Shown: piece by piece, positions 3-24,486 of the stretch | Layout: the number at the start of each line of letters is the position of its first letter | Position numbering within the stretch: the stretch's first letter is position 1 | The notes under the pieces: generated by a model | What the model saw: the letters and a program-made list of their open reading frames with translations, nothing else | Told to the model about the DNA's origin: nothing | Databases searched by the model: none | Made by a program: the position numbers and the translations under genes | DNA from: Candidatus Omnitrophota bacterium | GTDB lineage: Bacteria > Omnitrophota > Gorgyraeia > Gygaellales > Profunditerraquicolaceae | Direction: 5' to 3' | DNA: 64,000 nt | Assembly: GCA_041661605.1 (NCBI GenBank) | Contig: JBAZUE010000001.1 | Coordinates: 786-64,785, forward strand

Positions 3-3000
3 GATACGGATTATACTTTAACCGGGGTAGGCGCTAATGATGTTTCCGGAAATGCCGGCTCAACCGTTGCGGTAAGCAGTAATAAATTGATAGTTACCCT
101 GGGCACGGCAGTACCTGCCGCAGGGCAAGTTGGTTTAGTTATCAATAATATAAAGAATCCTGCTGTTCAGACTACGGATGCCTATTCTATTTTGACTAAA
201 AATTCAGGCGGCAATCAACTTGACCAGGGCAGTGTTTCAGGTAAAGCGATAACAGCAGGGGCCTTAACCGGGCTTTCTGTAAGTGCCGCTACTTATGAAA
301 TAGGGGAGAGTACAAGTTATACGGTCAATCTTACGCTGGCGCATGATATACCGATAAACGGTTATATAAAAATAGGCTTTGATAATAATTATTCTTTGAC
401 CAATGCAACGGTAGCAACCAGCGGCTATGCCTTAACCGAGACCGGAAGTAATTATCTTTTGCTTAGGACAGGTTCTGCTCGAACAGGGGCAATCTCCATA
501 CAACTTAACACCATTGTTAACCCTGTATTCGTATCTAATACACTGACCGGTTTTGCCGTCCAGACACAGCTGGCCAATAACCAGATAATCGATACAGGCA
601 CTGCCGCCGCAGTTACTACTACGGCAGGCGCTTTCTCGGCTGTAACAGTTACCCCAGCGTCTTTAGGGGTAAGCACTCTTACGAATTATACATTCCACTT
701 TACCACAGACCACGCAGTATCAGCCGGCGACAAGGTGATTATCACACTTGATTCTGACTGCAGTTTAGTGGAGGTTCAGGAGGTAGATGTTTCCGGTAAC
801 GAAGGTTCATATGTTTTAACTTCTGCTAATGTGCTTACTGTAATCTTAGGCCAGGATATCGCTAAAAATACACCGGTATCTCTGGTCATCTCTAACATCA
901 GGAACCCGGCATATGTGCAGACAACAGCTGATTTTGCCTTAGCCACCAGGAATGCTGCCAATGCCTTAATTGACCAGGGGACAGCTGCCGGGGTTCTAAT
1001 AACAGCAGGCACTTTGACCAGCGTATCGGGGGTCCCGGTAAACTATGCCGCCGGAGCTACGACTCAATATACGTTTGATTTTATGCCCGCGCATGATGTG
1101 GCAGCAGGCGGGTATTTAAGGATAGAGTTTAACTCCGAATATAATTTAAGCGGCGCCTATGTTATCAGCCCGTCATCTACATACAGTATATCCAGCAAAA
1201 CCGGCAATGTTATCGTGCTTAATGTGCTCCAGGAGATATTGGCAAATAGCTCTCAAAGCATAAATATCGGCGGCATAATCAACCCCGGACGCGAAAAGAC
1301 AGCGATTAAATTTACATTAACTACGCGCACTTCCGCCGGAGCCGATATCGATACTGCCCAGTCAGCTGCCATAAATATAACCACAGGTTTGTTAACCTCA
1401 GGTTCTGTTACTGCCAGCACTTATACAACTTATGATTTAGCTTCATATACATTCAGCTTTACTACTGCTAACGCTTTGAATGTTGGCAGTAAGGTGGAAA
1501 TAACTTTTGATGCCGATTATAACGTATCCGGGGCAGTCTTTACTTTTGGAAATAACGGCTCTACGCTCTCTGTGGCAGGCCGCGTGGTCATTATTACCTT
1601 AGGCACAGCGATAGCCAAGCTGGAAAGCGTAAGTTTAGCCATATCTGAAGTCAGGAACCCCGGTGTCCAATCCACAGATAGTTATTCTATAGTTACCAAA
1701 GACGCTACGGATGTAAGGGTGGATACCGGCACGATTGCAGGTAAAGTAATTACCGGCGGCAGCATGAGCGCTACTTCCGTAGTTGCCGGTTCAACACAGC
1801 CCAGCGTAAATACAAGTTATACATTCGGCTTTACTCCTGACCATGTAATCCCCGCTAATGGTTATGTTAAAATAACCTTTGATACAGACTATGTTTTAGA
1901 TTTTGCTTCAGTTCAGACAGCGGGTTATGCCCCCAATGTCGGGCCTGGTTATATACTCTTAACTAATACAACCGGAGGAGATTTAAGCGGCGCCCGAAGC
2001 ATAGCCTTGCTTAATGTCAAGAATCCTCCTTCTGTTGAAGAGCCGACAGGTAATTTCTATCTTACAACAATGACCCAGAATCAGGATACCATAGATACCA
2101 AGAGCATTACCGGCATAACTATGACGCCGAGCCCGATAACTGTTGCGTCTATTTCAGCTGTTTCAACGAAGATATCCGCGCTTACTTCATATACCGTAAG
2201 AATAACGCCGATTCATACTATCCCTATAGGAGGCAAGGTTCTGGTTACTTTTGACAGCGATTATATTTTAGCCAACATCGGACCTGATGATGTGTTGGGC
2301 AATGGCGCTGTTGCTTCCGTAAGCGGCAGCGTCTTGACAGTTACTTTAGGCGAGGTGGCTCCTCAAGGAAACGTGCTTACCTTGATAATTTCAAATGTTC
2401 AGAATCCGCCTTATGTACAGGCAGCAGACGCGTTTTTGGTAATGACTAAAGATTCCTCAGGGGGCAAGTTAGATACCTGCAGTATAAATGGACTCTCAAT
2501 AACCGAAGGCCAGTTGTCCGCTTTATCGGCAACGCCTGTAGATACTACTTTGGATGCGGTTACGAATTATCTATTCCAGTTTACTCCGGAACATACCATA
2601 CCTTTAAATGGCTATGTAAGGATAGGTTTTGATACTGATTTTGATTTAAGCGGCGCCTATTGCGGAGACAGTACTTATTCCGTTGTTTCATTAGGCAGCG
2701 GCTATATCTTACTTAAGGCTTTAGCCGAGAAATCAGCCAGCCAAAGTTTCCAGATACTTAATATAAAGAACCCTCCATATGTACAGACAACGGATGCCTT
2801 CTCCATTACTACGCAGAATTCCGCTCAGAAGAATATAGATATAGGTAATGCCGCCGGCATTACCACTACGGCAGGTTTATTGACCGCTCGCTCAGTCAGC
2901 CAGGTTTCTACGCAGGCTGGGGCTTCCACAAGCTATACCTTTGGTTTTACTACGGTTCACGCTATTGCTTCCGGAGGAAAAATTGAGATAACCTTTGACC

Positions 3001-6000
3001 CGGATTACGTCCTTAGCTCTGTTACCGCTTTTGATGTATCCGGAATCGCAAATTCAACCGTAGCTGTAAGCAACAATAAACTTATAGTGACCACGGGCGC
3101 TTCGGTTTCGGCAGGGGGGCAAGTTTCATTAACTATTAATCATATAAAGAACCCGGCGTATGTGCAGGCAACAAGCGCCTTTACGATAGATACCAAGAAC
3201 GCTTCAGGCGGTATATTGGATAATGGCGCAATAGCCGGTATTAATATTACAGCAGGGGCTTTGTCGGCTGTTTCAGCTACGCCGGCCTCTACCGAAGTAG
3301 CCAAGAGCACGGATTATACATTCGCATTCACCGGAGAACATAACCTGCCCGCAGGAGGTTATGTGCAAGTACAGTTTGATCCAGCTTATAATTTAAGTGA
3401 AGCTATAGTTTTGACATCAGGTTATTCTTTGGTAACCAGGGCCAGTAATTACCTTAGACTTCAGACTTCCGAAGAAAGATCAGGTTCTGCCAGCATAGCT
3501 TTAAGAAATATAGTTAATCCTTCTTACGCGTTAACTACTTCAAGCTTTACCATAATCACGCAGACATCCGCCGGCGATACAATTGATATGGGTACTTGTA
3601 ACGGTATCACGATTACTGCCGCATCTTTAATAAGCGCATCCGCCAGCGCAGCGGTAAGCGAAGTAAGCAGCCAGAGCGATTATACTTTTATCATTACTCC
3701 TCAGCATAACGTACCCATAAACGGCAAGATCAGGATAACTTTTGATAATGATTATAATGTCAGTGAAGTACTGGCAGGCGATGTTGCCTGTAACGGCGGA
3801 AGCGCTACAGTTGCGGTAAGCGCCAAGACTTTGATTATAACATTAGGCTATGAACTGGTAAGCGGCACAGAAGAAAACATAGTTATTTCCAGAATCAAGA
3901 ATCCCTCTTTTGCGCAGACCACAGCCAACTTTGCCATACAGACCAGAGACGACCAGGATAGGATAATTAACCAGGGCAGCGCTTCCGGCATAGTGATAAC
4001 CGCAGGCCCTCTGACCGCGGTATCGGTCAGCGCCGATTCTCTCGTGGCAGGATATACGACAAACTACACGTTTAATTTTACACCCACTCACGCTATTAAC
4101 GTGGGAGGATATGTTGTAATAGATTTTGACTCTACTTATAATGCCGGAGCTGGTTACGTAGTCAGCCCGCTTGATACATTTAGTTTGTTGTCCAGGTCAG
4201 CTAACCGCATAACCCTTAACGTATTAAAGGCTTTATCAGCCGGCATAGAGCAAAGCGTGATTATAGGCTCTATTGTTAACCCCGGTTCCGTAAAACAGGT
4301 TACCTTTACTATTACTACCCAGAATACTACCCAGAATCCCGTCGATACAGCGGTTTCTCCTGCCATAAGCACGCTGGCAGCGCCAATGACAGCTGTCTCT
4401 GTAAGCACGGCCAGCACTGTTGCCTTGAATGTTACCTCATACACTTTTGGGTTTACTACTGTTAACTCAATAGGTTTAGGCGGCAAGATCGAGATAACCT
4501 TTGATCCGGAATATGACCTGACCCAGGCCGCATATACTTCAGGCTTAGTAGCCGGCTCAACACCGTTAGCGGCAACCCTGGAATTAAGCGGCAGTAAGCT
4601 GATATTAACCTCAAATACTGTAATCGGTACGCAAACGAGCGTTTCAATATCCTTATCCAATATTAAAAACCCTGGAGTCCAGACTGTAGATGGCTTTGCC
4701 CTTCTTACCAGAGACTCAACAAATAGAGAGCTTGATCAAGGAACGGCAACAGGAGTTACTATAATCGCCGGTTCCCTGACAGGCCTGTCGGTAACAGCAG
4801 GTTCAACCGAGATAAGCAAAAATTCAACCTATAGTTTTGGCTTTACGGTAGCCCACACTGTGCCGGTTAATGGTTATGTAAAACTGGCATTTGACAGCGA
4901 CTATTCATTTGTGAACGCCAATATTTTAAGCGAAGGTTATGTAATATCCGATAAACAGAGTAATTTTATCCTGCTTAAGAGGACCGCTCAACTTATAGGT
5001 TCAAATACTTTACAGTTGGGCAATATAGTAAATCCGTCATATGTCCAGGCAGCAGATCCTTTTGTCATCACAACCCAGCTTGCCGATAATAAAGTGATCG
5101 ATACCGGCACTACTCAAAGCATCAATATCACTCCCGGAGTCCTGACATTGACATCCGCAACTGCCAATGATGCCTTGATAAGCGCAACTACCACTTACAA
5201 TTTCAGCTTTAAGACTTCGCATGCCATAGAAGCAGAAGGCAAGATAATAATCACATTTGATTCGGATTATGATTTGAGTCTGGTATCTGTGGGGTCGCAG
5301 GATATTTCCGGCAGCGGCACTCCTGCCATTGAATTAGTAAATGGGAACAAAATAGATATAGTTCTTGCTACGGAGGTAGCGGCTTCTTCTACAGTTTCTT
5401 TGACCATATCCAATATAAAGAACCCCGCTTATGTGCAGACAACTTCTGCTTTCGTATTGCAGACCAAGACCGCTTTAGGAGCAATTACAGATGAGGGTGC
5501 GGCCGCGGGCCTGACAACTACAGCCGGAGCATTAAGCGGCATTACCGTCATATCGGGCAGTTCAATAGCAGGTGCCAGGACAGATTATACTTTTACTTTT
5601 ACCCCCGCCCATAACGTGGAGATAAACGGTTATTTAAGAGTTGATTTAAATGCGTTATACGACGCCAATATCTCTTATGTAATGGCTCCGACAAGCGCGA
5701 CATTTGAAATATCCGAGAAGGCGGCTAATTATGTTGTGGTAAAGGCAAAATCCGCCTTGGCAGCCGGCACGGGGTATACGCTCAGGCTGGGCAGTATTGA
5801 TAACCCCGGCCGTTCAATGGATGTGAATTTTACTTTGACCACCAAGACCGCAGGTAACGCTACGATAGACACCGGCATAAGCTCAAGCCTGCATATATCA
5901 CCGGCACCTATGCAGTCAGCATCTATTTCAGCAAGCAATTTAATCGCTACCCAGACAGCTACTTATACTGTGAGTTTTGTCCCGATTAATACTATAGAGG

Positions 6001-8540
6001 CAGGCGGCAGGGTTGAGATTACATTTGATGCCGACTATGTGCTTACTGGAGTCACCAGTGTTACAGGTTATGACGCCAGCGTAACAGTAGCCGGTAATAT
6101 CCTGGTAATTACTTTAAACACGCAATTACAGGTAGGAGAAGCCTGTTCTTTCGTAATTCCGAATATTAAAAACCCGGGTGCGCAGAGTACAGACGCTTAT
6201 TCCCTGGTAACCAAGGATTCTACGGGTACTTCTTTAGATGAAGGCACGATAGCCGGTAAAGTCATCCTTGCCGGAGCATTAAGCGGGCTTTCCACCTCGG
6301 CTACGTCGTATGAAGTAATGGGCACAAGCGAGACTGCGACATATACCTTTAATTTTACCTGCCAGCATACTATTCCTGTTAACGGATATGTCAGGATAGG
6401 TTTTGACGCGGATTATTTCCTGGATAACGCGGTTAACCAGAGCCCGCAATATTTAATATCTTCTAAGGGAGCGGATTATTTATTAATCAGGACTACCCAG
6501 GAGCGCAGCGGAAATTGCACTATACAGATAAGCGGCATAAGGAACCCGGGCTATGTACAGACAACCGCTAATTTTACAGTAGCCACGCAGCTACCCGCGC
6601 AGCAAAATATTGATACCGGCACCATTGCAGGGATTACCACTACTGCAGGTTCCTTGAGTAACCTTTCAGTAACGACAACTAACTCTAAAATCGCCGAGGC
6701 AGCTACGTATACCTTTGGGTTTACGGCGGACCACGCCATCGCGGTAGGAGGCAAAGTAGCTATAACTTTAGATTCCGATTATAACCTGGCATCGGTCCAG
6801 CCTACCGATGTATCCGGTAATACCGGCTCGACTGTGGCAGTTAACGGAGCAGACCTGGTTATTACTTTGGGTGAACAGGTCTTTGCTTCAGATAATGTAT
6901 CGCTCTCGGTAGCCAATATAATCAACCCGTCATACGTCAAGACCGCGGCTAATTTTAGTATTAAGGCCAAGAATACCGAGGATGGATTAATAGATGAAGG
7001 CAGCGTAGCCGGATTAACTTTTGAGCCGGGAGTTTTAGGCGCCGTAAGTGTCAGCTCGAACAGCCTGCAGGTAAATGCCCAGTCGATTTATACCTTTACC
7101 TTTACACCCGCGCATCCAATTCCTGCCGGCGGATATATTAAAATAGACCTGGATAATGATTTTAATATAGGTTCGGCATATCTATACCTGGTATCAGGTT
7201 ATTCTTTCACTAAGAACCTGACTGATGTTTATTTTACTTTACAACCAAACAGCGCAAAACCGGCAGGGACACCTATAGTAATATCTATAGCCGGCATTGC
7301 CAACCCTCCATATAGCCAGACCACGGATAATTTCGCAATTAACACGCAGGCGGTTAATCAGAATGGTATCGATTCCGGAACAGCTCCCGGAGTTGAGATT
7401 ACCGCAGGAGAGCTTTCAGGGGTAAGTGTTAGCGCCGCCGGAGGAAACTATGTAGCCGGAGCACAGACAAGTTATACTATTGCATTTACCACTATAAATG
7501 CCGTGGGTGTCGGAGGCAAGATTAAGATTACATTTGATTCTGATTACGGGCTCCTGTTAGACGGCACAGTGTTAGGTAATTCCGGCTCAACAGCCGCAGT
7601 AAACGGAAATATTATTACTGTAACTTTAGGAACGGCAATTCCGGCTAATCAAGCTGTCAGCTTAACCATGGGCACTTTCAGGAACCCCGGATACGCGCAG
7701 ACAACGGAAAACTACACCATAAGAACGTATGATTCCTTAAATAACGCCCTGGATTCAGGTACGGCGCCGGGGCGTGATATTACTATAGGCGCTTTGACCG
7801 GTTTAGCCGTAAATGCCAGTTCATTTACCGTGCTTAATGCGGATACGAAATTGACATTTGACCTTAATGCCACACATACGATCCCCCAGGATGGTTATAT
7901 CAAGATTACTTTGGATAGCGATTATATAGTTGTAGCTCCTTATATTAAGAGTTCTACCGGGGCCAACCTGACCTTACTTACAGAAGCAGGCAGCCAGGAT
8001 GGGTATCTTTTGTTTAAGCTAAATTCGGCATTTACAGGGGCAATGAGCGTTGAGGTAGGAGGGCTTACCAACCCTGCTTATGAGCAGACTACAGCGAATT
8101 TTGTGGTTACTACTATGTATACCGGAGAACAGAGTATTGACACAGGTACTATTACGGGTTTGGCTATTACTGCCGGCTCCCTGAATATAAGTTCTGTGAG
8201 CAGCCCGGATGTTTATTCCGGCTCAACTACAGAATATACCATTGATTTCGTAGCAGCACACAATATCCCGATCACAAGTAAGATTGAAATTGTTTTTGAT
8301 AGTGATTATGATTTAAGTACTTCCACATTGAGCAGCCCGGAAGGGAGTTTAACCGTCTCAGGAAATACCTTGAGTATATCTTTAAATGCCGGAGTTACGA
8401 CCTCTGCTAATGTAAGTCTGAAGATAGCCGGTATTATAAATCCGAAATATTCGCAGACAACGGGTATTTTCAGGGTGACTATAAAGGATTCAGGAAACAA
8501 TGTTGTAGATAAGGGTGAGCATGCAGGAATTGCCATATTG
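3..8540 (+). repeat. Coding tandem array of at least 23 divergent ~125-aa beta-rich modules, organised as ~500-aa four-module super-repeats
   Basis: Each module carries TxYTFxFTxxHxIPxxGxIxIxFDxDY, then (I/L)xN(I/V)xNPxYxQTTxxFxIxT, then IDxGT. I counted 23 NP anchors. The A-type anchors fall at nt 156, 1656, 3150, 4668, 6171 and 7683. Confidence 0.85.
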
Positions 8541-11500
8541 CCCACGCAAATACAGTTTGTGACGCCTGCGGCAGGATATGCTTATTCAGTCGGAGATACT
8601 AAGGTTGTTAAATGGCAGGTTACAGGAGGGGATATCTCCAGGACTAGCAGTCACTGGCTGGCTCAATTCTCTACAACCGTTGATTTCAATTCGGTTATAA
8701 ACGTCCATGAAGGCCTGGCGCAGAAAGATGCAGGGGGTAACCTGTATTTTGAATTATCGGTAGATTCAAGCATGCTTTCAGAGGCTGCTTATATCAGGGT
8801 CTCTTGCACGGATGCGTTATATACCGATGTTACCACAACTTCCGGGCAGTTTAGCGTAAGGCCTGCCGGAGGGTTCATCGGTTTTGCTTCGCCTATCGCA
8901 GCTGTTAAATGGGCTGTCGGCAGCGATAATATAATAGAGTGGTCTACGCAGGGAGCCCTTTCCAATAACTTTAAGATTGAATATCTTTCCAAGGGCACCT
9001 GGACAACTATTTTTGAGCAAGGCATCAGCCCCGGATCAATTACTAAAACTGCAGGCGCTCACTGGTATGAAGATAAATGGTCTTATACCTGGACAGTAGA
9101 GCCGGCGGCAAACCTTCCTGATTCCGGAGTAGTAATAAAAGTTACTAATCTCGATAATAATACAATTACCGGGGTTACAGATGCTTTTGAAATAGCAAAT
9201 GCCTATATTAAAATAACCAGCCCGCTCATCGGAGTTACCTGGGTAAGGACAGAAACCAATAATATTACCTGGGAAGGCCAGGGTGAATCAGGTACCAGGT
9301 TTAGAATAGCATATTCGGATGATGCCGGGGTTACGACTACTGAGATTTTTAACGGTCAGGTAGACAGGACCTTCTCTGAAGGAAAATGGTTATATAGCTA
9401 TCCGTGGGTAGTAGGCGCGCAGCTTGATCAGACCGCAACAGCGGTAATAATAATAACTAATTTGGATAATGACGAGATTGCCGATACATCCGCTTTGTTT
9501 AAAGTCAACGCCAGCGGCATATTGGATATCACAGCTCCGCTGGCCGCAGATAAATGGGTTGTCGGAGCCAAATACCAGATAAAGTGGGATTCCCAAGGTC
9601 AGGCCCTGAGCAATTCATCTTTAAGAATAACTTATACCGCAGACGGTATTCCGGAAACATTGATTACAAATTCTGCGCCTAATAACGGCAGTAAAGATTT
9701 TACTTGTCCTTCTACCGCACTGACCAATGTAAAGATACATTTGTTCCAGGTAGGCGGCGATGTCAGGGCTGATTCCGGTACTTTCAGTATTGTATCGGTG
9801 CCCGCGCTTACCTTTACCTCGCCGGTTGTCAATGATAACTGGATTGCTTCTTTCGGCAAGGAGATAAAATGGAACTGCGTTGGCGACGGAGCAACAAAGA
9901 AATTAGTGATCAAGTATTCACTTGACGGCGGCTCAACCTATCCAAATACAATCTTTGATTATAATGTAGATTCTTATGATGAAAAGATAGCGTCTGTAAT
10001 TACAGGACCGATTACCGCTTATACGCTGGCCTGGACTGTGCCGGTTAGTTACAGCAATAATGTCAAAATCAAGATTGAAGATATGGGGGTAATGCGTTCG
10101 AGTCTGCCTTTAACCTGTATAAGCGGCAAGTTCTCTATTACCGCTCCGATTGCGACTATTTCCCAGCCGGCCGGAGGTGAAGAGTGGATTGCCGGAACAG
10201 AGCATGATATTATCTGGTCGGAGACCGGTATTGTAGGCAAAGACATAAAGATAAGCTATTCTGTCGACGGGGGAACAACCTATCCGTATGTAATCTTCCA
10301 GAATCCCGGGGGAGACAATACCACCTATGTAAACAATATAACCGTCTCCGGCACATCTCTTAGTTATAAATGGACAATACCTAATACTATCGCTTCGACA
10401 TGCCGTGTTAAGATACAAGGCCTGACCAATAACGGAGGAGGCTCTTCGCTTTCTAATTTCGCGATCAAGCTTCCCGTTATAACTATAACTTCTCCCGTTG
10501 CCGCGGATTTATGGTCGGTTTATGATACCGGCAAGTCGATCACCTGGACTAAGACCGGAAACGTAAGCGATAACTTAAAGATAGAATATTTTAAGGATAA
10601 TCTTACATCCAAGGTCATAATAGATGATACTAACAGTACTTTGACATCTTACAGTTGGGATATAACAGAGAGTTTCAGCGATTATGTCTCGGATGCCGGA
10701 TGGATAAAAATTACTGATTTAAATTCTCAGGCTACCTTTGGCCAGGTAGTTTCGGCGGTATCGGCTTCTTTTAAGCTTTCTTTGCCCGGTTTCGATATTG
10801 CCGTGCCTGCAACTCCTTTGATCGTCGGCAATACCTATACAATAACCTGGCAGGGTATTGGCATGTATTCCGAATGCAGCAATGACCCGGCTAACACCAT
10901 ACGCCTTGAGTATGGTATTGGGGATAATCCTGAATGGGTCTTGATAGCAGCTTCTGCGCAGAATGACGGTTCGTATGAGAATTGGACAGTTCCTAATGTG
11001 CATTCCGGAGAGGTAAAGTTCAGGATTACCAATAACAGGTGGTCTTTTATCACGGGGATTTCAGACCCATTCAAGATAATGGGTTCAGTCTCTATTACCA
11101 GTCCTGCTGCCGCAACAAAGCTTTTTGTGGGACAGGATCAGATGATAGAGTGGGATACCAATGGCACGATTAATAAACTAAACCTGTATTATTCAAAGAA
11201 TGGCGGCACTACCTGGAATACCATAGTTTCAAATACCACTAATAACGGTTATTATGTGTGGACAATACCCGATGCCGTGCTTGTTGACCGTTCTCCTAAC
11301 AGCAGCGTATATTTTAAGGTAGAAGATGCCACGGATGCGGCGGTCTATACCAACAGGCAATATACGATAAGCTATTATAAGGTTACCTGGAATGTCATTG
11401 ATGCCGATGGCTTAGTGGGTGATTTAGACGGCTTAAGCGTAAATTCGCTTGATGTAACCAATAATAACACCGTATGGGAAGACAGGACAGGTATGAGTTG

Positions 11501-13643
11501 TTCGGAATCTATCAAGAGCCCCGCGGTTGATGCCGACGACATAGTGCTTTATTATTATCCCGGCCACCTTTATCAGACTACCTGGTCAAGAGACGCTTAT
11601 TTGGACGCTACTGTCCAGCCTTCTCCGTGGGTAGCGGATTCAGACGGTAAAGTGGTGACCGTAAAGTTAGCTACTATGCTGGTTTTAAAAACAAGGACAG
11701 TGTACTCTGAAGTCAAATATGACGCGCCTAGCGATACCTTAAATATACAATGTTGGCTGCAGGAAGAAGAAAAACTGCTTACTGAAGTAAGCGGCCTGCA
11801 GGGCTGTTTGATAAAAATTTATGATGATAACGATACGGAGATCAAGAGTTTTGAATATAACGCTGCGCAGTCAGATACAAGCGGCGTCTTCTGGACAAAG
11901 TGGTTGCATCCAGGGCTTCAAACAAGCAAGAGTTATTTTGCCCGTTTCAGGATCCAGTTTGAAGGCGCTTTCCACTATGGCGGAAAGACATTTGAGATAA
12001 GCTCAGCCGAACAGATACAGGATATATCCAAAAACGTAAGTGCCGGGGTGGTTACTATTACCGCGGCAATTGCCGAAAGCTCCAAACAGATAAAAGAAAA
12101 GATAGAAACAACGGCAACAGCAACGCAGACAAAAGTAGAAACAACCGCAGCGGCAACACAGGCGGCTATAAGCAGCGCCCAGCAGTCAATAGAGCAGAAG
12201 GTTACGGTTATCGGAGAAGAGACCAAGTCGGCGGTTAATACAGCCGCTACTACAGTAAAGGAGAATCTCAGCCGGGAGTCCTCCAGCCGTATAATAAATG
12301 AGGAGAGCTTTATAAAATCAGGAAAGACATTAAAGATTAAATATAAGGTTGATTCCGGATTAACCCCGGAGATAGATGTATATGACCCGGAGAATACCCA
12401 ACGTGTAACTAAAGGGGAGATGAAGGAGATAGAAGAAACCGGGGTTTATGAATATGACCTTACCTTCTTAACTGCCTGGGGCACAGGTTCATTCTCCATT
12501 GTCTGTTCTGAATCAACCTATGGAACAATTGACGGAATAAGCATAGAGGTGGTAAAGGCAGACCTGGAGGATATTAATAGCGCCGCGGTTGTGGCTATGT
12601 CGCAATTATCCAATATCGACACTGACCAGATGAAGAATTTATCTACCAGTATTGGTATTGTCAGCTCCAGTATAGAAAAGATCGTCGGCACAATGACTGA
12701 TCTGGGTTCAATGAGTAATAAGATCTCCGAGTTGACTAACGACATTCAGAAGACCGTTTTTGATCAGCTATCCGCGGCTTCGGATAAGATGAAAGAGATA
12801 GCTAAGCAGCAGAGTGTCAAGATAGATAAGATGATTGATGTATCCGAAAAAGGCCGGGAGGATGTAAGTTACCTTAAGAAGAAGACCCTGGAGATTAAAG
12901 CGGCAACGGAACTGACCAGCGAGATAGTCCAAAGAACTAATGATAAACCTATAAATAAGAGCTGGCTTGAGCCGGGCAGTATTTTAATGAACGCGATGGT
13001 AGTTAACCCTTCAACCACAAAGAGCCAGACCGCTATGCTCAAGGCCTATTTACCTGTTGAGAGTAAACCTGAAGATATCGTGAATTTAGGGGATCTTTCC
13101 GTTAGCTATGATGTCCAGGAGAACCTGTATTATGTGTTTAAGGAGTTTACCCTCGGTCCCGGAGAAACGGCTAAGCGCCAGATAGAGCTTAAGGATGTGT
13201 GGGTAATCTCTGAAAAAGAATTGAATGCAACGATCGAAAGAATCAACGAGATGCTCCTGGATCTAAAGGGGAGCTCTTTCTATAGCAAGGCCTCTGTTAT
13301 CAAGGAGTCTATCCAAACAAGGGTTGATCAGATATTAGAGGCGCAGAAGAAAGCCATGGAAGCATTACCCGATGCCCACATTGCCGTCTATAGAGCAAAT
13401 ATGCAGATTTTAAATACAATTAAAGAGGACCTTGCCAGAGTGGAAGCTATGCTGCTTCAGGCCAAGCCCGCCGTAGGCCTGGCGTTTAACAAGGTATTTG
13501 TCAAGACCAGCTGGTGGATAATCTTGCTGGTGGTTGCTTTCCTTGCGGCGCTTTCATTCGGGCTTTTCATTGTATGGCATAAACAGGCAAAAATGGCGCA
13601 AACCGATAAAAAGGCCGAGAAGACGGAAGAGCCTACAGATTAA
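3..13643 (+). CDS. Giant repeat-rich surface protein with a C-terminal membrane anchor; the 5' end lies outside the window (at least 4,546 codons visible)
   Basis: One uninterrupted frame runs from nt 3 to the TAA at 13641-13643. Codons at nt 3-86 (DTDYTLTGVGANDVSGNAGSTVAVSSNK) continue the internal repeat consensus, so the TTG at 87 in the ORF track is not the true start. Confidence 0.9.
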   Translation, partial: DTDYTLTGVGANDVSGNAGSTVAVSSNKLIVTLGTAVPAAGQVGLVINNIKNPAVQTTDAYSILTKNSGGNQLDQGSVSGKAITAGALTGLSVSAATYEIGESTSYTVNLTLAHDIPINGYIKIGFDNNYSLTNATVATSGYALTETGSNYLLLRTGSARTGAISIQLNTIVNPVFVSNTLTGFAVQTQLANNQIIDTGTAAAVTTTAGAFSAVTVTPASLGVSTLTNYTFHFTTDHAVSAGDKVIITLDSDCSLVEVQEVDVSGNEGSYVLTSANVLTVILGQDIAKNTPVSLVISNIRNPAYVQTTADFALATRNAANALIDQGTAAGVLITAGTLTSVSGVPVNYAAGATTQYTFDFMPAHDVAAGGYLRIEFNSEYNLSGAYVISPSSTYSISSKTGNVIVLNVLQEILANSSQSINIGGIINPGREKTAIKFTLTTRTSAGADIDTAQSAAINITTGLLTSGSVTASTYTTYDLASYTFSFTTANALNVGSKVEITFDADYNVSGAVFTFGNNGSTLSVAGRVVIITLGTAIAKLESVSLAISEVRNPGVQSTDSYSIVTKDATDVRVDTGTIAGKVITGGSMSATSVVAGSTQPSVNTSYTFGFTPDHVIPANGYVKITFDTDYVLDFASVQTAGYAPNVGPGYILLTNTTGGDLSGARSIALLNVKNPPSVEEPTGNFYLTTMTQNQDTIDTKSITGITMTPSPITVASISAVSTKISALTSYTVRITPIHTIPIGGKVLVTFDSDYILANIGPDDVLGNGAVASVSGSVLTVTLGEVAPQGNVLTLIISNVQNPPYVQAADAFLVMTKDSSGGKLDTCSINGLSITEGQLSALSATPVDTTLDAVTNYLFQFTPEHTIPLNGYVRIGFDTDFDLSGAYCGDSTYSVVSLGSGYILLKALAEKSASQSFQILNIKNPPYVQTTDAFSITTQNSAQKNIDIGNAAGITTTAGLLTARSVSQVSTQAGASTSYTFGFTTVHAIASGGKIEITFDPDYVLSSVTAFDVSGIANSTVAVSNNKLIVTTGASVSAGGQVSLTINHIKNPAYVQATSAFTIDTKNASGGILDNGAIAGINITAGALSAVSATPASTEVAKSTDYTFAFTGEHNLPAGGYVQVQFDPAYNLSEAIVLTSGYSLVTRASNYLRLQTSEERSGSASIALRNIVNPSYALTTSSFTIITQTSAGDTIDMGTCNGITITAASLISASASAAVSEVSSQSDYTFIITPQHNVPINGKIRITFDNDYNVSEVLAGDVACNGGSATVAVSAKTLIITLGYELVSGTEENIVISRIKNPSFAQTTANFAIQTRDDQDRIINQGSASGIVITAGPLTAVSVSADSLVAGYTTNYTFNFTPTHAINVGGYVVIDFDSTYNAGAGYVVSPLDTFSLLSRSANRITLNVLKALSAGIEQSVIIGSIVNPGSVKQVTFTITTQNTTQNPVDTAVSPAISTLAAPMTAVSVSTASTVALNVTSYTFGFTTVNSIGLGGKIEITFDPEYDLTQAAYTSGLVAGSTPLAATLELSGSKLILTSNTVIGTQTSVSISLSNIKNPGVQTVDGFALLTRDSTNRELDQGTATGVTIIAGSLTGLSVTAGSTEISKNSTYSFGFTVAHTVPVNGYVKLAFDSDYSFVNANILSEGYVISDKQSNFILLKRTAQLIGSNTLQLGNIVNPSYVQAADPFVITTQLADNKVIDTGTTQSINITPGVLTLTSATANDALISATTTYNFSFKTSHAIEAEGKIIITFDSDYDLSLVSVGSQDISGSGTPAIELVNGNKIDIVLATEVAASSTVSLTISNIKNPAYVQTTSAFVLQTKTALGAITDEGAAAGLTTTAGALSGITVISGSSIAGARTDYTFTFTPAHNVEINGYLRVDLNALYDANISYVMAPTSATFEISEKAANYVVVKAKSALAAGTGYTLRLGSIDNPGRSMDVNFTLTTKTAGNATIDTGISSSLHISPAPMQSASISASNLIATQTATYTVSFVPINTIEAGGRVEITFDADYVLTGVTSVTGYDASVTVAGNILVITLNTQLQVGEACSFVIPNIKNPGAQSTDAYSLVTKDSTGTSLDEGTIAGKVILAGALSGLSTSATSYEVMGTSETATYTFNFTCQHTIPVNGYVRIGFDADYFLDNAVNQSPQYLISSKGADYLLIRTTQERSGNCTIQISGIRNPGYVQTTANFTVATQLPAQQNIDTGTIAGITTTAGSLSNLSVTTTNSKIAEAATYTFGFTADHAIAVGGKVAITLDSDYNLASVQPTDVSGNTGSTVAVNGADLVITLGEQVFASDNVSLSVANIINPSYVKTAANFSIKAKNTEDGLIDEGSVAGLTFEPGVLGAVSVSSNSLQVNAQSIYTFTFTPAHPIPAGGYIKIDLDNDFNIGSAYLYLVSGYSFTKNLTDVYFTLQPNSAKPAGTPIVISIAGIANPPYSQTTDNFAINTQAVNQNGIDSGTAPGVEITAGELSGVSVSAAGGNYVAGAQTSYTIAFTTINAVGVGGKIKITFDSDYGLLLDGTVLGNSGSTAAVNGNIITVTLGTAIPANQAVSLTMGTFRNPGYAQTTENYTIRTYDSLNNALDSGTAPGRDITIGALTGLAVNASSFTVLNADTKLTFDLNATHTIPQDGYIKITLDSDYIVVAPYIKSSTGANLTLLTEAGSQDGYLLFKLNSAFTGAMSVEVGGLTNPAYEQTTANFVVTTMYTGEQSIDTGTITGLAITAGSLNISSVSSPDVYSGSTTEYTIDFVAAHNIPITSKIEIVFDSDYDLSTSTLSSPEGSLTVSGNTLSISLNAGVTTSANVSLKIAGIINPKYSQTTGIFRVTIKDSGNNVVDKGEHAGIAILPTQIQFVTPAAGYAYSVGDTKVVKWQVTGGDISRTSSHWLAQFSTTVDFNSVINVHEGLAQKDAGGNLYFELSVDSSMLSEAAYIRVSCTDALYTDVTTTSGQFSVRPAGGFIGFASPIAAVKWAVGSDNIIEWSTQGALSNNFKIEYLSKGTWTTIFEQGISPGSITKTAGAHWYEDKWSYTWTVEPAANLPDSGVVIKVTNLDNNTITGVTDAFEIANAYIKITSPLIGVTWVRTETNNITWEGQGESGTRFRIAYSDDAGVTTTEIFNGQVDRTFSEGKWLYSYPWVVGAQLDQTATAVIIITNLDNDEIADTSALFKVNASGILDITAPLAADKWVVGAKYQIKWDSQGQALSNSSLRITYTADGIPETLITNSAPNNGSKDFTCPSTALTNVKIHLFQVGGDVRADSGTFSIVSVPALTFTSPVVNDNWIASFGKEIKWNCVGDGATKKLVIKYSLDGGSTYPNTIFDYNVDSYDEKIASVITGPITAYTLAWTVPVSYSNNVKIKIEDMGVMRSSLPLTCISGKFSITAPIATISQPAGGEEWIAGTEHDIIWSETGIVGKDIKISYSVDGGTTYPYVIFQNPGGDNTTYVNNITVSGTSLSYKWTIPNTIASTCRVKIQGLTNNGGGSSLSNFAIKLPVITITSPVAADLWSVYDTGKSITWTKTGNVSDNLKIEYFKDNLTSKVIIDDTNSTLTSYSWDITESFSDYVSDAGWIKITDLNSQATFGQVVSAVSASFKLSLPGFDIAVPATPLIVGNTYTITWQGIGMYSECSNDPANTIRLEYGIGDNPEWVLIAASAQNDGSYENWTVPNVHSGEVKFRITNNRWSFITGISDPFKIMGSVSITSPAAATKLFVGQDQMIEWDTNGTINKLNLYYSKNGGTTWNTIVSNTTNNGYYVWTIPDAVLVDRSPNSSVYFKVEDATDAAVYTNRQYTISYYKVTWNVIDADGLVGDLDGLSVNSLDVTNNNTVWEDRTGMSCSESIKSPAVDADDIVLYYYPGHLYQTTWSRDAYLDATVQPSPWVADSDGKVVTVKLATMLVLKTRTVYSEVKYDAPSDTLNIQCWLQEEEKLLTEVSGLQGCLIKIYDDNDTEIKSFEYNAAQSDTSGVFWTKWLHPGLQTSKSYFARFRIQFEGAFHYGGKTFEISSAEQIQDISKNVSAGVVTITAAIAESSKQIKEKIETTATATQTKVETTAAATQAAISSAQQSIEQKVTVIGEETKSAVNTAATTVKENLSRESSSRIINEESFIKSGKTLKIKYKVDSGLTPEIDVYDPENTQRVTKGEMKEIEETGVYEYDLTFLTAWGTGSFSIVCSESTYGTIDGISIEVVKADLEDINSAAVVAMSQLSNIDTDQMKNLSTSIGIVSSSIEKIVGTMTDLGSMSNKISELTNDIQKTVFDQLSAASDKMKEIAKQQSVKIDKMIDVSEKGREDVSYLKKKTLEIKAATELTSEIVQRTNDKPINKSWLEPGSILMNAMVVNPSTTKSQTAMLKAYLPVESKPEDIVNLGDLSVSYDVQENLYYVFKEFTLGPGETAKRQIELKDVWVISEKELNATIERINEMLLDLKGSSFYSKASVIKESIQTRVDQILEAQKKAMEALPDAHIAVYRANMQILNTIKEDLARVEAMLLQAKPAVGLAFNKVFVKTSWWIILLVVAFLAALSFGLFIVWHKQAKMAQTDKKAEKTEEPTD
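8541..11369 (+). repeat. Coding tandem array of nine ~105-aa Ig-like modules (Kre9/KNH-like, Ser/Thr-rich surface-domain pattern)
   Basis: The recurrent signature is (I/V)T(S/A)Pxxxxx(W)xxGxxxxIxW, then xGxx, then (I/V)xYSxDGGxT(Y/W), then YxWT(I/V)P, then (V/I)K(I/V). Module starts are near nt 8541, 8868, 9200, 9520, 9805, 10148, 10475, 10790 and 11085. Confidence 0.6.
13512..13577 (+). other. Single predicted transmembrane helix (tail anchor) of the giant protein
   Basis: A 22-residue hydrophobic run, WWIILLVVAFLAALSFGLFIVW, is followed by a 21-aa K/E-rich tail (HKQAKMAQTDKKAEKTEEPTD) and the stop codon. Confidence 0.8.
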
Positions 13644-20456: not shown

Positions 20457-22181
20457 ATGATAATTAAAATAGGCCAGATGTTGATTAACAAAAAATTAAT
20501 TACCTCTGAACAACTAGAGTCGGCCCTGCAGGAACAGGGAAAAACGGGCGAGCTTTTGGGGTTAATCCTGGTTAAAAAAGGTTTTTTAACCGAGGAGGAT
20601 TTCTTAAAAGTACTTTCCGAGCAATTTAATGTTCCTTTCATAAAATTAAAAGAAACCACTATTGATCCTTCAGCGATAAAAAAGGTTCCTGCCAAATTCG
20701 CCTGGTATTATAAAGTTATGCCGGTTAAGTTCGTGGATAATAAATTAGTTATCGCATCTAGCGACCCCCTGCGATCGCTGGATGATTTAAGAATATTTTT
20801 AGGTTATGACTTAAAGCCCGCTTTGGCTTCGGAAGCTGAAATAATGGAAACGATTAAAGAGCATTACGGAGTAGGCGCTGAGACTGTGGAAGGCATTATT
20901 GCCAAGGCTCCAAAAGAAACCCGGGAGCAGGAAGCGCCAAAAGAAACAGGCAAGATTGAGGATATAGAAAAATTAGCCGAAGATGCCTCGGTAGTCAAGC
21001 TGGTAAATCAGATAATCCTGGAGGCTTACCAGAAGAGGGCTACCGACATCCATATTGAACCCTTCCGGGGGAAAATGAATATAAGGTACCGCATTGACGG
21101 GGTGCTTTATAACGCCAATGTCCCGGCGGATATCGAACGTTTCTTCCTGGCGATTATTTCACGCATAAAGATAATGTCCAGGTTAAATATTGTGGAGCGC
21201 CGTCTTCCTCAGGACGGACGTACTGTAATAAAGATAGGGCAGGAGGAATTGGACCTTAGAATTTCCATTATCCCGACTCGTTATGGCGAGGGCATGGTTA
21301 TAAGGATCCTTCCCATGAGCATGCTTTTTAGCTTAGAGAGATTGGGCCTGGTCCCTGAGGATTTAGAAATACTGGCAAGGTTAATCAAGAAACCTCACGG
21401 CATAATCCTGGTTACCGGGCCGACCGGCAGCGGCAAGAGCACTACTTTGTATGGATGCTTGAATGATATTAAAAGCAGCAAGAATAAGATTATTACCATT
21501 GAGGACCCTATAGAATATGAACTGGAAGGTATAATCCAGATCCAGGTTTTACCGGAGATAGGCTTTACCTTTGCCCAGGGATTAAGAAGCATATTGAGGC
21601 ATGACCCGGATATCATGATGGTGGGGGAGATCAGGGACTTTGAGACCGCGGAGCTGGCAATCAGGAGCGCCTTAACCGGGCATTTGGTTTTTTCCACCTT
21701 GCACACAAATGACGCTGCCGGGGCCGTGGCCAGGCTGCTTAATATCGGCATTGAACCATACTTGGTAGCTTCTTCCGTAGAGGCATTTATTGCCCAAAGG
21801 CTGGTGCGTTTAATCTGCCCGGAATGTAAAGAAATAGATACAGCAGTGCCGGATAATATCAGGACAATAATAAGCCAGGATGTTGCCAAGAGCAACATAG
21901 GGTTAAAACACTTAAGGGCCGCGGAGATTAAATTTTATAAGGGCAGGGGTTGTAAGGATTGCAACTTTACCGGTTATAAAGGAAGGACAGCAATCCATGA
22001 GATATTGGTAGTGGACAAAGCGATAAGAGAGCTGATGTTAAAGAAGGCATCAACCGATGAATTGAGGGATAAGGCGGTCAGCCAGGGGATGAAGACATTG
22101 CGTTTATGCGGATGGAAAAAGGTTATCGACGGACTGACTACTCCCGAAGAGATACTAAGAGTAACCCAGGCGGAGGAGTAG
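20457..22181 (+). CDS. gspE: Type II secretion / type IV pilus assembly ATPase (GspE/PilB/MshE family)
   Basis: It has an N-terminal T2SSE_N-type domain, Walker A GPTGSGKST, His box TGHLVFSTLHTND and a tetracysteine motif (CPEC...CKDC). Confidence 0.9.
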   Translation: MIIKIGQMLINKKLITSEQLESALQEQGKTGELLGLILVKKGFLTEEDFLKVLSEQFNVPFIKLKETTIDPSAIKKVPAKFAWYYKVMPVKFVDNKLVIASSDPLRSLDDLRIFLGYDLKPALASEAEIMETIKEHYGVGAETVEGIIAKAPKETREQEAPKETGKIEDIEKLAEDASVVKLVNQIILEAYQKRATDIHIEPFRGKMNIRYRIDGVLYNANVPADIERFFLAIISRIKIMSRLNIVERRLPQDGRTVIKIGQEELDLRISIIPTRYGEGMVIRILPMSMLFSLERLGLVPEDLEILARLIKKPHGIILVTGPTGSGKSTTLYGCLNDIKSSKNKIITIEDPIEYELEGIIQIQVLPEIGFTFAQGLRSILRHDPDIMMVGEIRDFETAELAIRSALTGHLVFSTLHTNDAAGAVARLLNIGIEPYLVASSVEAFIAQRLVRLICPECKEIDTAVPDNIRTIISQDVAKSNIGLKHLRAAEIKFYKGRGCKDCNFTGYKGRTAIHEILVVDKAIRELMLKKASTDELRDKAVSQGMKTLRLCGWKKVIDGLTTPEEILRVTQAEE

Positions 22182-22188
22182 GAAGGGA

Positions 22189-22428
22189 ATGTTCAAAGTA
22201 TCGGTGCTGGATATAAAGACAGCTTCAACTATATTCCAGGAATTGGCCTCTTCAGTTGTACTGCCGGGAGATGAAGGGGAACTTTCTATACTGGATTTTC
22301 ATCAGCCGGTTATCTCCTGTCTTAAAGACGGCATAATCAGAATAGACAGCAAGCCTCCTATGGTTATTAAGAACGGTATCGCCAGTATGCAGGATAATGA
22401 ATTAATAGTGTTGGTGGAGAAGAAATAA
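22189..22428 (+). CDS. atpC: F1 ATPase epsilon subunit, N-terminal beta-sandwich domain only (79 aa)
   Basis: FKVSVLDIKTASTIFQELASSVVLPGDEGELSILDFHQPVISCLKDGIIRI...IKNGIASMQDNELIVLVE aligns by eye with the epsilon NTD (GELGIL.GH.P pattern). No C-terminal helical hairpin is present. Confidence 0.75.
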   Translation: MFKVSVLDIKTASTIFQELASSVVLPGDEGELSILDFHQPVISCLKDGIIRIDSKPPMVIKNGIASMQDNELIVLVEKK

Positions 22429-22429
22429 T

Positions 22430-23683
22430 ATGCCGATATTCATTTATAAAGCAAAGAACGGCCCGCAAGAGGTTATTGAAGGGACTGTTGAGGCAGTGAC
22501 TAAGGAAGCAGCTGTTAGTAAGATAGAGCAGATGGGCTATGTCCCTATCCGGATTAATCTTAAAGAAGAGTCTCGCACCGCTGCTGCCGGAAAACCTCCG
22601 GAAAATAAAAATTCCGCTGTCGGGGCCGGGAATTTAGGGTTGTTTAACAGGGTTGGTTCATATGATTTAAATGTATTTACTGAACAGCTGGCTACTTTAG
22701 TTAAGTCCAAAGTGCCGCTTTTTGAAGCCATAAATATCCTTTCTTCGCAGACGGAAAATCCCAAGCTTAAGCTGATAATAACTTCTATATCCGGTGAATT
22801 AAAAGACGGTAAGACTCTGTCGGAGGCCTTAAGCAAATATCCCCAGGTCTTTCCTTTGCTATACGTTAATATGGTCCGCTCAGGAGAATCAGGCGGGGTT
22901 TTAGACGAGACCTTAACCAGGCTGGCTAAATTCCGTGAAGAACAGGAAGAGGTAAGAGCGAATATAAGCTCAGCCCTGGCCTATCCGATCTTTATAACAA
23001 TAGTAGGCTTGATTACGGTTATCATTCTGCTTACTTTTGGTATCCCGCGTTTGGTTTCTATGTTCAGCGAAACCAAACAGGCCCTGCCGCTGCCTACCAG
23101 GATTTTGATTTCAATAAGCAGCGGGATCAGGAACTACTGGTATTTGGGCGTAATGTTTATAGCCATGCTTATTTTTATGTTAAAACAAAAGCAGGCAAAT
23201 AGGAAGAAAAAGGTCATCTTTGATAAAATCATATTAAGGTTACCCATTTTGGGTAAATTTAACAAAAAAGCTATGTTGGCAGAATTTACCCGGACCTTTG
23301 CCCTGCTTTTGGCTAATGGCGTACCGGTACTTGAGGCGCTTCAGATAACTGTACCGACAATAAATAATGAAATATTCAAATCGGAGCTGGAAAAGGTGCA
23401 TAGTGATATTATCGTAGGCACCCCGCTTTCGCAGAGCATGAAAAAGTCCAGCTGGTTCCCGCCATTCCTGACCAATATGATCGCGGTAGGAGAAAGAGGG
23501 GGTAATCTGCAGGAGGTATTATTGGAGGTGGCAGTTTTTTACGAACGCGAAGTAAGAAAGATAAATAAAATAATGACTTCCTTGCTTGAACCGGCGATAA
23601 TCTTAGTCATGGGTTTAATTGTAGGTTTTATTGTCATGGCGATGCTTCTGCCTATTTTTGAGATCAATATGGCGGTAAGATAA
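22430..23683 (+). CDS. gspF: Type II secretion / type IV pilus platform protein (GspF/PilC family)
   Basis: This 417-aa protein has a duplicated T2SSF-type domain and three TM segments. It begins 1 nt after the epsilon stop. Confidence 0.9.
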   Translation: MPIFIYKAKNGPQEVIEGTVEAVTKEAAVSKIEQMGYVPIRINLKEESRTAAAGKPPENKNSAVGAGNLGLFNRVGSYDLNVFTEQLATLVKSKVPLFEAINILSSQTENPKLKLIITSISGELKDGKTLSEALSKYPQVFPLLYVNMVRSGESGGVLDETLTRLAKFREEQEEVRANISSALAYPIFITIVGLITVIILLTFGIPRLVSMFSETKQALPLPTRILISISSGIRNYWYLGVMFIAMLIFMLKQKQANRKKKVIFDKIILRLPILGKFNKKAMLAEFTRTFALLLANGVPVLEALQITVPTINNEIFKSELEKVHSDIIVGTPLSQSMKKSSWFPPFLTNMIAVGERGGNLQEVLLEVAVFYEREVRKINKIMTSLLEPAIILVMGLIVGFIVMAMLLPIFEINMAVR

Positions 23684-23699
23684 TTAAGGGGGAATTTAG

Positions 23700-24116: not shown

Positions 24117-24486
24117 AGGTTTTACATTAATTGAGATAATGATCAGCATAGCCATCCTGTCGTTAGGCCTGATCCTGATTCTTCAGGGGCTCACTCAGTG
24201 TCTTAACATCCTGCGTATTTCCCAGAACAACCTGGAAACAAGTTTATTGGCCGAGGAAAAGATGGCGGAGATGGAGATAGCCGTTAAGCAGGATAAGGAG
24301 ATGTTTTCTAAAGATACAAGCGGAGAATCGCAATCCGGCAATATAGAATTCAACTGGCATGTACGCTTGAACCCTGATATGCAATATGAAGATTTGTATG
24401 AGGTCCTGACTACGGTTAACTGGACAGAAGGAAGAAGAAAGGGCTCCAGTATTTTTAACAGCTATCTAATGATTCCGCATGGTTAG
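24088..24486 (+). CDS. Minor pseudopilin (GspH/GspI-like)
   Basis: It has the prepilin-type N-terminus KGFTLIEIMISIAILSLG, is 132 aa long, and sits directly after gspG. Confidence 0.7.
   Translation: MMTSETGKNKGFTLIEIMISIAILSLGLILILQGLTQCLNILRISQNNLETSLLAEEKMAEMEIAVKQDKEMFSKDTSGESQSGNIEFNWHVRLNPDMQYEDLYEVLTTVNWTEGRRKGSSIFNSYLMIPHG

Follow-up and report, generated by a model that had tools for sequence, protein, structure and literature searches.

We describe here the order of repeated modules in a giant gene of a Candidatus Omnitrophota bacterium. The gene opens a 64,000-nucleotide (nt) stretch of contig JBAZUE010000001.1 (GenBank assembly GCA_041661605.1, positions 786 to 64,785), referred to as the window; all nt coordinates are in window numbering unless given as locus nt. 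The visible part of the gene begins with a tandem array of 23 diverged beta-sandwich modules whose dominant order is a strict two-module alternation (X-Y) with a modest four-module modulation (A-B-C-D). Comparison with orthologs shows that the four-module super-repeat is real, imperfect, and nested on the stronger two-module repeat. We consider it likely that the region is the membrane-proximal half of the rigid stalk of a giant, Sec-exported, C-terminally membrane-anchored, adhesin-like surface fiber, with a two-level repeat that arose by block duplication.

The open reading frame (ORF) contains 23 Asn-Pro anchors in the window, with neighboring anchors 121 to 130 amino acids (aa) apart. A hidden Markov model (HMM) built from the modules returned 23 back-to-back domains across aa 1 to 2845, the first of which (M1) is clipped by the window edge. 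Both results agree with the sequence-only reading, an earlier annotation that had counted 23 modules from these anchors; its anchors for A modules at nt 156, 1656, 3150, 4668, 6171, and 7683, spaced by 1500, 1494, 1518, 1503, and 1512 nt, were recovered exactly. The spacing of about 1.5 kb is by itself uninformative on a four-module period, because every fourth module in an array of about 125-aa modules lies that far apart. Classes A to D were assigned by position, with odd modules (A and C) designated X and even modules (B and D) designated Y. Orthologs contain at least 46 modules, and the window array corresponds to the last 23.

Mean identity between window modules, determined from a MAFFT alignment, was 0.31 at lag 1, 0.37 at lag 2, 0.28 at lag 3, and 0.38 at lag 4, a pattern that continues to lag 16; neighboring modules are 31 to 34% identical, compared with 38 to 39% at lag 4. 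Permutation tests on identity gave z values of 10.8 for position modulo 2 and 3.4 for position modulo 4 given parity. Ungapped autocorrelation was too noisy owing to indels, and whole-array shifted alignments were replaced by per-module scores. Pairwise global alignment scores were more sensitive than identities for separating the classes. The mean global BLOSUM62 score was about 130 (range, about 120 to 138) at odd lags, about 172 (about 167 to 175) at lags 2, 6, 10, and 14, and about 205 (about 199 to 216) at lags 4, 8, 12, and 16. By score, z was 2.9 for A versus C and 3.7 for B versus D. By identity, A and C are hardly separable in the window (P = 0.04), and C-C identity (0.361) is lower than A-C identity (0.385). 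The nearest neighbor of a module has the same parity in 22 of 22 cases and the same modulo-4 class in 14. A bootstrapped neighbor-joining tree of the window modules supports the odd/even split at 85% and a D core of M4, M12, and M16 at 99%.

The four-module order was then read in orthologs, which extend upstream of the window. P0002 and P0187, from Omnitrophota metagenome-assembled genomes (MAGs), are about 68% identical to the window protein and wholly colinear with it, and every window module (23/23) has its same-position counterpart in P0187 as best match. A degenerate-peptide scan built on the alignment of the window protein and P0187 yielded four orthologous loci, from four other MAGs, with 72 to 85% identity, and the sole match of a metagenome scan was L003, an ortholog fragment without an upstream extension. 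The arrays are colinear across L003 to L007, and module lengths are unchanged in 20 to 22 of 22 modules across orthologs. The order in orthologs is at least five full modules, one split module, and then 40 full modules. L004, the 85% identical ortholog, carries these 40 full modules, and the run following the split module is the same in all three loci that span it (L004, L006, and L007).

The three tiers of similarity recur in these arrays. Mean scores between species were 145, 191, and 220 for odd lags, lags of 2 modulo 4, and lags of 0 modulo 4, respectively, and three ortholog arrays of 40 or 41 modules gave about 135 to 145, 185 to 197, and 220 to 242 within themselves. The same profile persists among the upstream-only modules of three orthologs, and lags 4, 8, 12, and 16 exceed lags 2, 6, 10, and 14 by about 35 to 45 score units in three orthologs. 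X-Y alternation runs throughout the ortholog arrays, with the parity of the nearest neighbor kept in 40 of 40 modules of L004. When the A-B-C-D phase was extended upstream in L004, the nearest neighbor fell in the predicted class for 34 of 40 modules, including 16 of the 17 outside the window; the chance level given parity is 9/19 (about 47%). The exceptions are M8, M20, M-7, M9, M21, and M23. In this array, A and C are separated with z = 6.1 (P = 1.5e-4, 20 X modules), and B and D are separated with z = 7.0 (P < 5e-5). A tree of the 40 modules recovers clades for 9 of 10 A modules and 7 of 10 D modules, and a B clade that includes the D-slot modules M8, M20, and M-8.

Because the predicted phase holds in upstream ortholog modules, the four-module super-repeat is real. 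The sequence-only reading had proposed four flavors in a fixed order, and its period above the single module is borne out by the higher scores of lags 4, 8, 12, and 16 relative to all other lags, both in the window and in three orthologs, and by the prediction of modules outside the window. It had missed the two-module alternation, which is the stronger level. Its expectation that a module tree would cluster by position modulo 4 is largely correct for A, D, and B; four separate, clean clades do not appear, since C is a basal grade and bootstrap support is 0 to 5%.

The period is also visible in a tract of recent sequence exchange. In L004, L006, and L007, a tract of 500 to 555 nt (locus nt about 8934 to 9488) matches sequence 1524, 1515, and 1521 nt downstream with 90 to 100% identity, an offset of exactly four modules. 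No other array tract in these three loci is at least 90% identical at any module-scale offset. The protein sequences of M-1 and M3 within a genome share identities of 0.90, 1.00, and 1.00 in the three orthologs. Between genomes, orthologous M3 copies are about 0.72 identical, and M3 is among the least conserved modules. Since the copies are 90 to 100% alike within genomes and about 72% alike between genomes, they indicate concerted evolution by ongoing gene conversion in quartet register, which would have acted independently in each lineage. By colinearity, the window would hold the counterpart of the downstream copy; its partner would lie four modules upstream, beyond the window. A separate tract of at least 90 nt, 100% identical at a 300-nt offset, lies inside the LVIVD propeller region of two orthologs (L004 nt about 2396 and L007 nt about 2391); a recent event between blade pairs, either duplication or conversion, may explain it.

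Long exact nucleotide repeats are absent from the window, as had been noted earlier. The best match is 132 nt at 72% identity (M1 versus M9), the others range from 60 to 78%, and no 90-nt stretch of the window array is at least 75% identical at any in-frame offset. The accompanying claim that the array is ancient rather than recently amplified holds for the window and most of the array, given the positional orthology of all window modules, and fails for the tract of about 500 nt in the orthologs. Periscope-type surface proteins have near-identical DNA repeats whose copy number varies between strains. Recent amplification of that type was rejected: inter-module DNA identity is at most 78% in the window, and the 40-module run is shared by L004, L006, and L007.

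The classes differ in sequence motifs. The main contrast between X and Y modules is GGK versus xGY ahead of strand 3, together with the central strands. D-core modules have motifs of their own (GGYLRIDFN, YV.SP, and NPGR), and an A subgroup of M5, M13, M17, and M21 has an Asn in place of a conserved His and one residue fewer after NPG. Aromatic residues are more numerous in Y modules (about 11, versus about 7.5 in X modules); class differences in charge or in Ser/Thr content were not detected. D is the best-conserved class between orthologs (0.77, versus 0.64 for C). The A signature given in the sequence-only reading proved to be composite. Its first part, VSGNxGSTVAV..L.VTLG, is present in M1, M9, and M21 and is shared by two C modules, M3 and M19; its second part, NPGVQ(S/T)TD, occurs in M5, M13, and M17 and roughly in M1.

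Several modules depart from their slots: M8, M20, and M-8 are B-like modules in D slots, and M9 and M21 are C-like modules in A slots. M8 and M20 had both been called degenerate D modules. M20 is truly divergent, but M8 is a B-type module that shares 46% identity with M10 and M18, both of class B. The simplest explanation for the B-type modules in D slots is old replacement at a two-module offset.

The fold of the module was modeled with AlphaFold2. A single module, modeled with the 22 paralogous modules as the alignment, is predicted to be an eight-strand beta-sandwich with a predicted local distance difference test score (pLDDT) of 95.9. The model of one A-B-C-D unit, M9 to M12, reached a pLDDT of 95.4 and a predicted template modeling score (pTM) of 0.76, with strands nearly continuous over the module borders. 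This model indicates a rigid rod in which modules abut without linkers. The solved structures nearest to the module are sandwiches of a generic kind, namely the CLIPPER adhesin domain 9ifr, cohesins, CBM2, the macroglobulin receptor-binding domain, YcnI, and BslA, with TM-scores of 0.4 to 0.64 and about 10% identity. The quartet model resembles multi-immunoglobulin (Ig) stalks, such as the Ig-like domains of PrgB and integrin legs, in a generic way only.

Neither NCBIfam nor the PDB sequences contained a match to the module profile. In Pfam, only DUF2808 (PF10989) recurs, and weakly: 6 of 22 modules match at E < 1, and M15 covers HMM positions 10 to 117 of 146. Membership in DUF2808 was rejected, as the best single module (M15) scores 21.0 bits against a gathering score of 25.3 and the other modules score at most 14 bits or are absent; the whole-protein score of 43.7 bits is the sum of weak matches. 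The suggestion of an undescribed beta-sandwich repeat is thus upheld by the confident sandwich model and by the lack of any module reaching a Pfam cutoff. A word-index search with one quartet returned only P0001 and missed the orthologs. In the exhaustive profile search, 2,593 cluster representatives matched at E ≤ 1e-3, of which 846 matched at E ≤ 1e-10. Many members of this family are 2,000 to 6,700 aa long, and copy numbers range from 3 to 41. X-Y alternation was rejected as a family-wide trait: most distant relatives have X-like or mixed modules and lag profiles that are flat or decay with distance, and strict alternation is limited to the orthologous group described here plus a few fragments. 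One relative, P0014 (1,968 aa; source, eukprot), repeats every three modules, with 71% identity at lag 3; this higher-order repeat is distinct from the quartet and far younger. Its presence in a eukaryotic proteome collection may reflect bacterial contamination.

The giant ORF has no start in the window, and its frame runs past the 5′ edges of the window and the contig. The ORF is followed by MFA6129352.1 (locus tag WC731_00010) on a Candidatus Omnitrophota MAG contig of 922,655 bp. Judging from this tag number, the giant gene would be the first of the contig and would have been truncated in assembly. Sequencing run SRR18595301 carries identical genes. In both L004 and L007, one ORF spans the complete 21.7-kb locus and is open at either end. 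Window aa 1 aligns colinearly with L004 aa ~3334; therefore, the full-length protein would be at least about 7,880 aa long. The window contig and the 13,024-bp contig encoding P0187, which come from separate MAG assemblies, both begin in the middle of M1, at most five codons apart. The conversion repeat explains this shared start point only in part, because the ortholog tract copies lie about 500 nt to either side of it and not at the point itself.

Downstream of the array, the window protein continues through nine copies of a second repeat, which is probably Ig-like; its sole Pfam signal is Kre9_KNH (E = 0.026, below the cutoff of that family). The following region, which leads to the transmembrane (TM) helix, has homologs in the C-terminal parts of P0004, P0007, and P0013 (25% identity). 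Its low-complexity segment (aa ~4000 to 4490) has weak apolipoprotein-like matches typical of amphipathic helices. P0004 and P0007 (5.8 to 6.6 kaa) end at ...EGWFE, and the window protein (aa ~4318 to 4546) runs about 215 aa further, to the TM anchor; these two proteins may lack an anchor or may rely on one encoded by another gene downstream. The TM helix itself is conserved in the orthologs P0188, P0185, and P0186. Distant full-length relatives start with classical signal peptides, and one of them, P0005, ends with a comparable TM anchor. Dockerin, TSP3, and SecA-DEAD domains and multiple TM segments were not found in the visible 4,546 aa.

Upstream of the window-equivalent region, L004 (nt about 2160 to 3140, aa 720 to 1046), L006, and L007 encode a seven-blade LVIVD beta-propeller (229 bits). 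It splits one stalk module into halves matching HMM positions 1 to 52 and 56 to 120. The corresponding part of the gene described here lies past the contig edge. Ligand-binding domains of fibrillar adhesins are described as emerging from split stalk domains (PMC12077191). By this analogy, the LVIVD propeller of the orthologs would be a candidate ligand-binding head.

The ortholog records show several irregularities. In L003 (AMWB02105363.1), the module frame is left in M17 at nt about 4700 (VEITFDLIMTFPESAALQAMTQA*), probably through a frameshift or an assembly error. In L006, a run of masked bases (N) at nt about 2800 to 2900 breaks the giant ORF within the LVIVD region; because of this interruption, the 908-aa ORF upstream is part of the same gene and not a neighbor. 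P0002 is deposited under a Dehalococcoidales MAG (8-kb contig), and L005 and L006 are deposited as uncultured Planctomycetales, which suggests mis-binning or coarse classification.

Gene clusters resembling those of a type II secretion system (T2SS) or type IV pilus (T4P) lie downstream of the giant gene in the window. The gspE gene (20457 to 22181) sits between the F-ATPase beta (19016 to 20425) and epsilon (about 22189 to 22428) genes, with gspF following directly, so that the secretion/pilus cluster is interleaved with the ATP synthase operon (19016 to 23683). Logan contig L002 has the same order. A second T2SS/T4P-like cluster (58837 to 63774) opens with a GspE-type ATPase of 551 aa and is preceded by a 949-aa PAS histidine kinase (55956 to 58805). 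Feature coordinates are collected in Table 1.

Table 1. Features of the giant gene and its surroundings in the 64,000-nt window
Feature	Position (nt)	Strand	Basis or remark
Giant ORF, 3′ part (4,546 codons plus stop)	3..13643	+	Open from first full codon to stop
Array of 23 beta-sandwich modules, about 125 aa each (M1 truncated)	3..8537	+	HMM segmentation
Module starts, M1 to M23	3, 252, 621, 1002, 1380, 1752, 2124, 2502, 2868, 3249, 3615, 3999, 4374, 4764, 5130, 5520, 5898, 6267, 6642, 7023, 7401, 7782, 8169	+	
Quartet 1: M1 A (truncated), M2 B, M3 C, M4 D	3..1379	+	Position; M4 in D clade (M4, M12, M16), 99% bootstrap
Quartet 2: M5 A, M6 B, M7 C, M8 (B-type module in D slot)	1380..2867	+	Best partners of M8 are M10 and M18
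Quartet 3: M9 (A slot, C-like by score), M10 B, M11 C, M12 D	2868..4373	+	Unit modeled in three dimensions
Quartet 4: M13 A, M14 B, M15 C, M16 D	4374..5897	+	
Quartet 5: M17 A, M18 B, M19 C, M20 (D slot, divergent)	5898..7400	+	M20 groups with B modules
Last, incomplete quartet: M21 A, M22 B, M23 C; most divergent modules	7401..8537	+	Lowest ortholog identity, 0.53 to 0.70
Putative counterpart of downstream conversion-tract copy (end of M2 and most of M3)	450..1005	+	Mapped by colinearity (locus nt 10001 = window nt 3)
Nine copies of second repeat, about 95 to 115 aa (ITSP..W..G....I.W..G...I.Y)	8538..11387	+	Manual segmentation, alignment, self-HMM (9 hits)
Non-repeat beta-rich region, then long low-complexity helix-like segment (aa ~4000 to 4490)	11388..13511	+	Sequence inspection
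Single C-terminal TM helix, aa 4504 to 4526, WWIILLVVAFLAALSFGLFIVW	13512..13580	+	Kyte-Doolittle, 19-residue window, 3.04
Short charged tail HKQAKMAQTDKKAEKTEEPTD, presumed cytoplasmic	13581..13640	+	Topology from the positive-inside rule
T2SS/T4P-like cluster (gspE, F, G, pseudopilins, J, K, pilM/N, pilO)	20457..28154	+	Pfam hits; 7 kb downstream of giant gene

The stepwise origin that we favor would begin with the duplication of a single module, the two copies diverging as X and Y. This pair would in turn have duplicated and diverged into an A-B-C-D quartet, and the quartet would have been amplified about ten times before at least five sampled lineages diverged. Thereafter, the number, order, and length of the modules would have been frozen. 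This stasis would have been broken by the occasional B-type replacement of D-slot modules (M8, M20, and M-8) and by the one active conversion tract, which pairs copies exactly one quartet apart. The order may have been retained because least-similar neighbors would limit inter-domain misfolding and alternating interfaces would give the rod a defined geometry; neighboring homologous domains are reported to diverge to avoid misfolding (PMC4660218). The protein ends in a membrane anchor and, judging from the orthologs, would carry a propeller in a split module of its stalk. An Ig-like module spans 4 to 5 nm. With that length assumed for each module, the fiber would project on the order of 200 nm from the cell.

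Several points weigh against parts of this account. The quartet signal is modest in the window, where shuffling whole X-Y pairs gave z = 3.3 and P = 0.024. Exact-class bootstrap values in the window tree are 5% for A, 4% for B, 0% for C, and 0.3% for D; in the 40-module tree, C forms a basal grade rather than a clade, and exact-class bootstrap is 0. Exact four-class monophyly is therefore unsupported, and the stepwise duplication history is a model rather than a resolved phylogeny. Block duplication by itself produces a low identity of direct neighbors, for which selection need not be invoked. As to export, the N termini of the window protein and its orthologs are out of view, so that no signal peptide is visible; the visible protein contains no LPXTG motif, outer-membrane barrel, or type I secretion system (T1SS) signal; and a rod anchored in the cytoplasmic membrane would have to pass an outer membrane.

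Function, rather than descent, might have kept or created the quartet order. Class-specific surfaces would then recur every four modules, the likeness of modules within a class would stem from a common constraint, and the quartet would be a functional structural period, acting as a molecular ruler or a series of docking sites for partners, lateral self-assembly, or a periodic ligand. The class-specific motifs are conserved across orthologs, with D best conserved; module lengths are invariant; the quartet model is rigid; and Y modules are richer in aromatics. No partner is known, though, D slots tolerate B-type replacement at three places conserved in orthologs, and hierarchical similarity with quartet-offset conversion is what common descent and homology-driven recombination predict. 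We regard a functional period as unlikely, and it would complement block duplication rather than exclude it. If it were true, the docking period would be roughly 18 to 20 nm (at 4 to 5 nm per module), with D modules the likeliest sites, and gene conversion in quartet register would help to keep the period. The array would then be a bacterial extracellular analogue of the ruler principle of titin and nebulin, drawn from a large uncurated family of stalk domains.

The protein might also be no adhesin fiber, with the repeat order as described above. It would then be a structural part of the envelope, such as an S-layer-like or sheath scaffold, or a ruler spanning the periplasm. The C-terminal anchor in the cytoplasmic membrane and the long helical segment beside the membrane are consistent with such a role, and the fold is as close to the BslA, cohesin, and macroglobulin-type sandwiches as to adhesin domains. 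Against it, at least 46 modules and a propeller in a split module are typical of projecting fibers, and copy numbers ranging from 3 to 41 among relatives are unusual for a lattice component. We give this possibility little weight relative to a surface stalk. The weakest alternative, that only the X-Y alternation is real and the four-module period reflects a few unusual D modules (M4, M12, and M16) and chance, draws on the poor A-C separation, the two supported splits, and the 14 of 22 class matches in the window; it is very improbable and is largely refuted by the upstream modules that follow the phase, the separation of A from C alone among 20 X modules, the score difference between lags in three orthologs, and the conversion tract at exactly one quartet's offset.

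Stalk formation by block duplication, the reading that we prefer, has parallels in known systems. Titin contains 7- and 11-domain super-repeats of Ig and fibronectin type III domains, and nebulin contains a 7-module super-repeat. As in the Omnitrophota array, similarity in these proteins is highest one super-repeat apart and lowest between neighbors, the arrays reflect block duplication, and the order is conserved between species. Titin and nebulin are eukaryotic and intracellular, and their super-repeats match a known periodic partner, the thick or thin filament. The array described here is bacterial and predicted to be extracellular, has a period of four, has no known partner, and belongs to a fold family unrelated in sequence.

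Among bacterial stalks, SasG has an alternating E-G5 stalk. Alternation of CLIPPER and CLIPPER_2 (DUF11/DUF7507) has been described in the stalks of bacterial fibrillar adhesins (bioRxiv 10.1101/2025.04.25.650565). Both kinds of stalk resemble the array in their tandem beta-sandwich domains and strict alternation of two types. The array differs in that its two types, X and Y, diverged within a single family and in its second, four-module order. CLIPPER (PDB 9ifr) is the top Foldseek match of the module (E = 4.6e-5), with a TM-score of 0.45 and 12% identity. An isopeptide-bonded CLIPPER/CnaA-like domain was rejected: the module has no DUF11 hit, no conserved Lys in the first strand, and no triad. 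The sole class-specific Lys (GGK, X modules) is replaced by Tyr in Y modules and shares its strand with the conserved Asp.

A further comparison is with RTX and other fibrillar adhesins (PMC12077191). The long tandem Ig-like stalk is shared, and the orthologs have a globular propeller in a loop of a split module. Relative to the adhesins as described there, the window protein has no RTX repeats and no C-terminal T1SS signal, carries a C-terminal TM anchor rather than an N-terminal retention module, and has stalk repeats that are diverged rather than near-identical. A search of the literature returned no comparable report of a super-repeat of several domains in the stalk of a bacterial adhesin.

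Giant proteins of Omnitrophota have been described as Dockerin-type giants and Archaeovorins, with giant genes adjoining T2SS-like loci (bioRxiv 10.1101/2023.11.21.568195), and as a tandem-repeat scaffold class (bioRxiv 10.64898/2026.06.07.730766). The window gene resembles them in phylum, in its very long, repeat-rich ORF, in its predicted extracellular bulk and C-terminal TM region, and in its adjacent T2SS-like locus. In both cases, nucleotide tandems have decayed while the domain architecture persists, and assemblies fragment at the repeats. The window gene differs in a dominant repeat outside Pfam, a single TM helix, and a length (at least about 7.9 kaa) that falls under their giant thresholds. 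The text of neither report mentions a super-repeat or DUF2808.

Counting repeats in short-read MAGs underestimates this array, of which the window shows 23 modules and the orthologs at least 46. A Pfam-type model of the module would annotate much of the dark giant-protein sequence in Omnitrophota and other uncultured lineages. The array shows that a conserved, multi-level super-repeat of the titin and nebulin kind is possible in what is probably the stalk of a bacterial surface protein. Two regimes coexist in one gene, as most modules are frozen positional orthologs and one tract of about 500 nt would be in concerted evolution. The gene may thus serve as a natural system for the study of how long repeat arrays stay foldable and stable.

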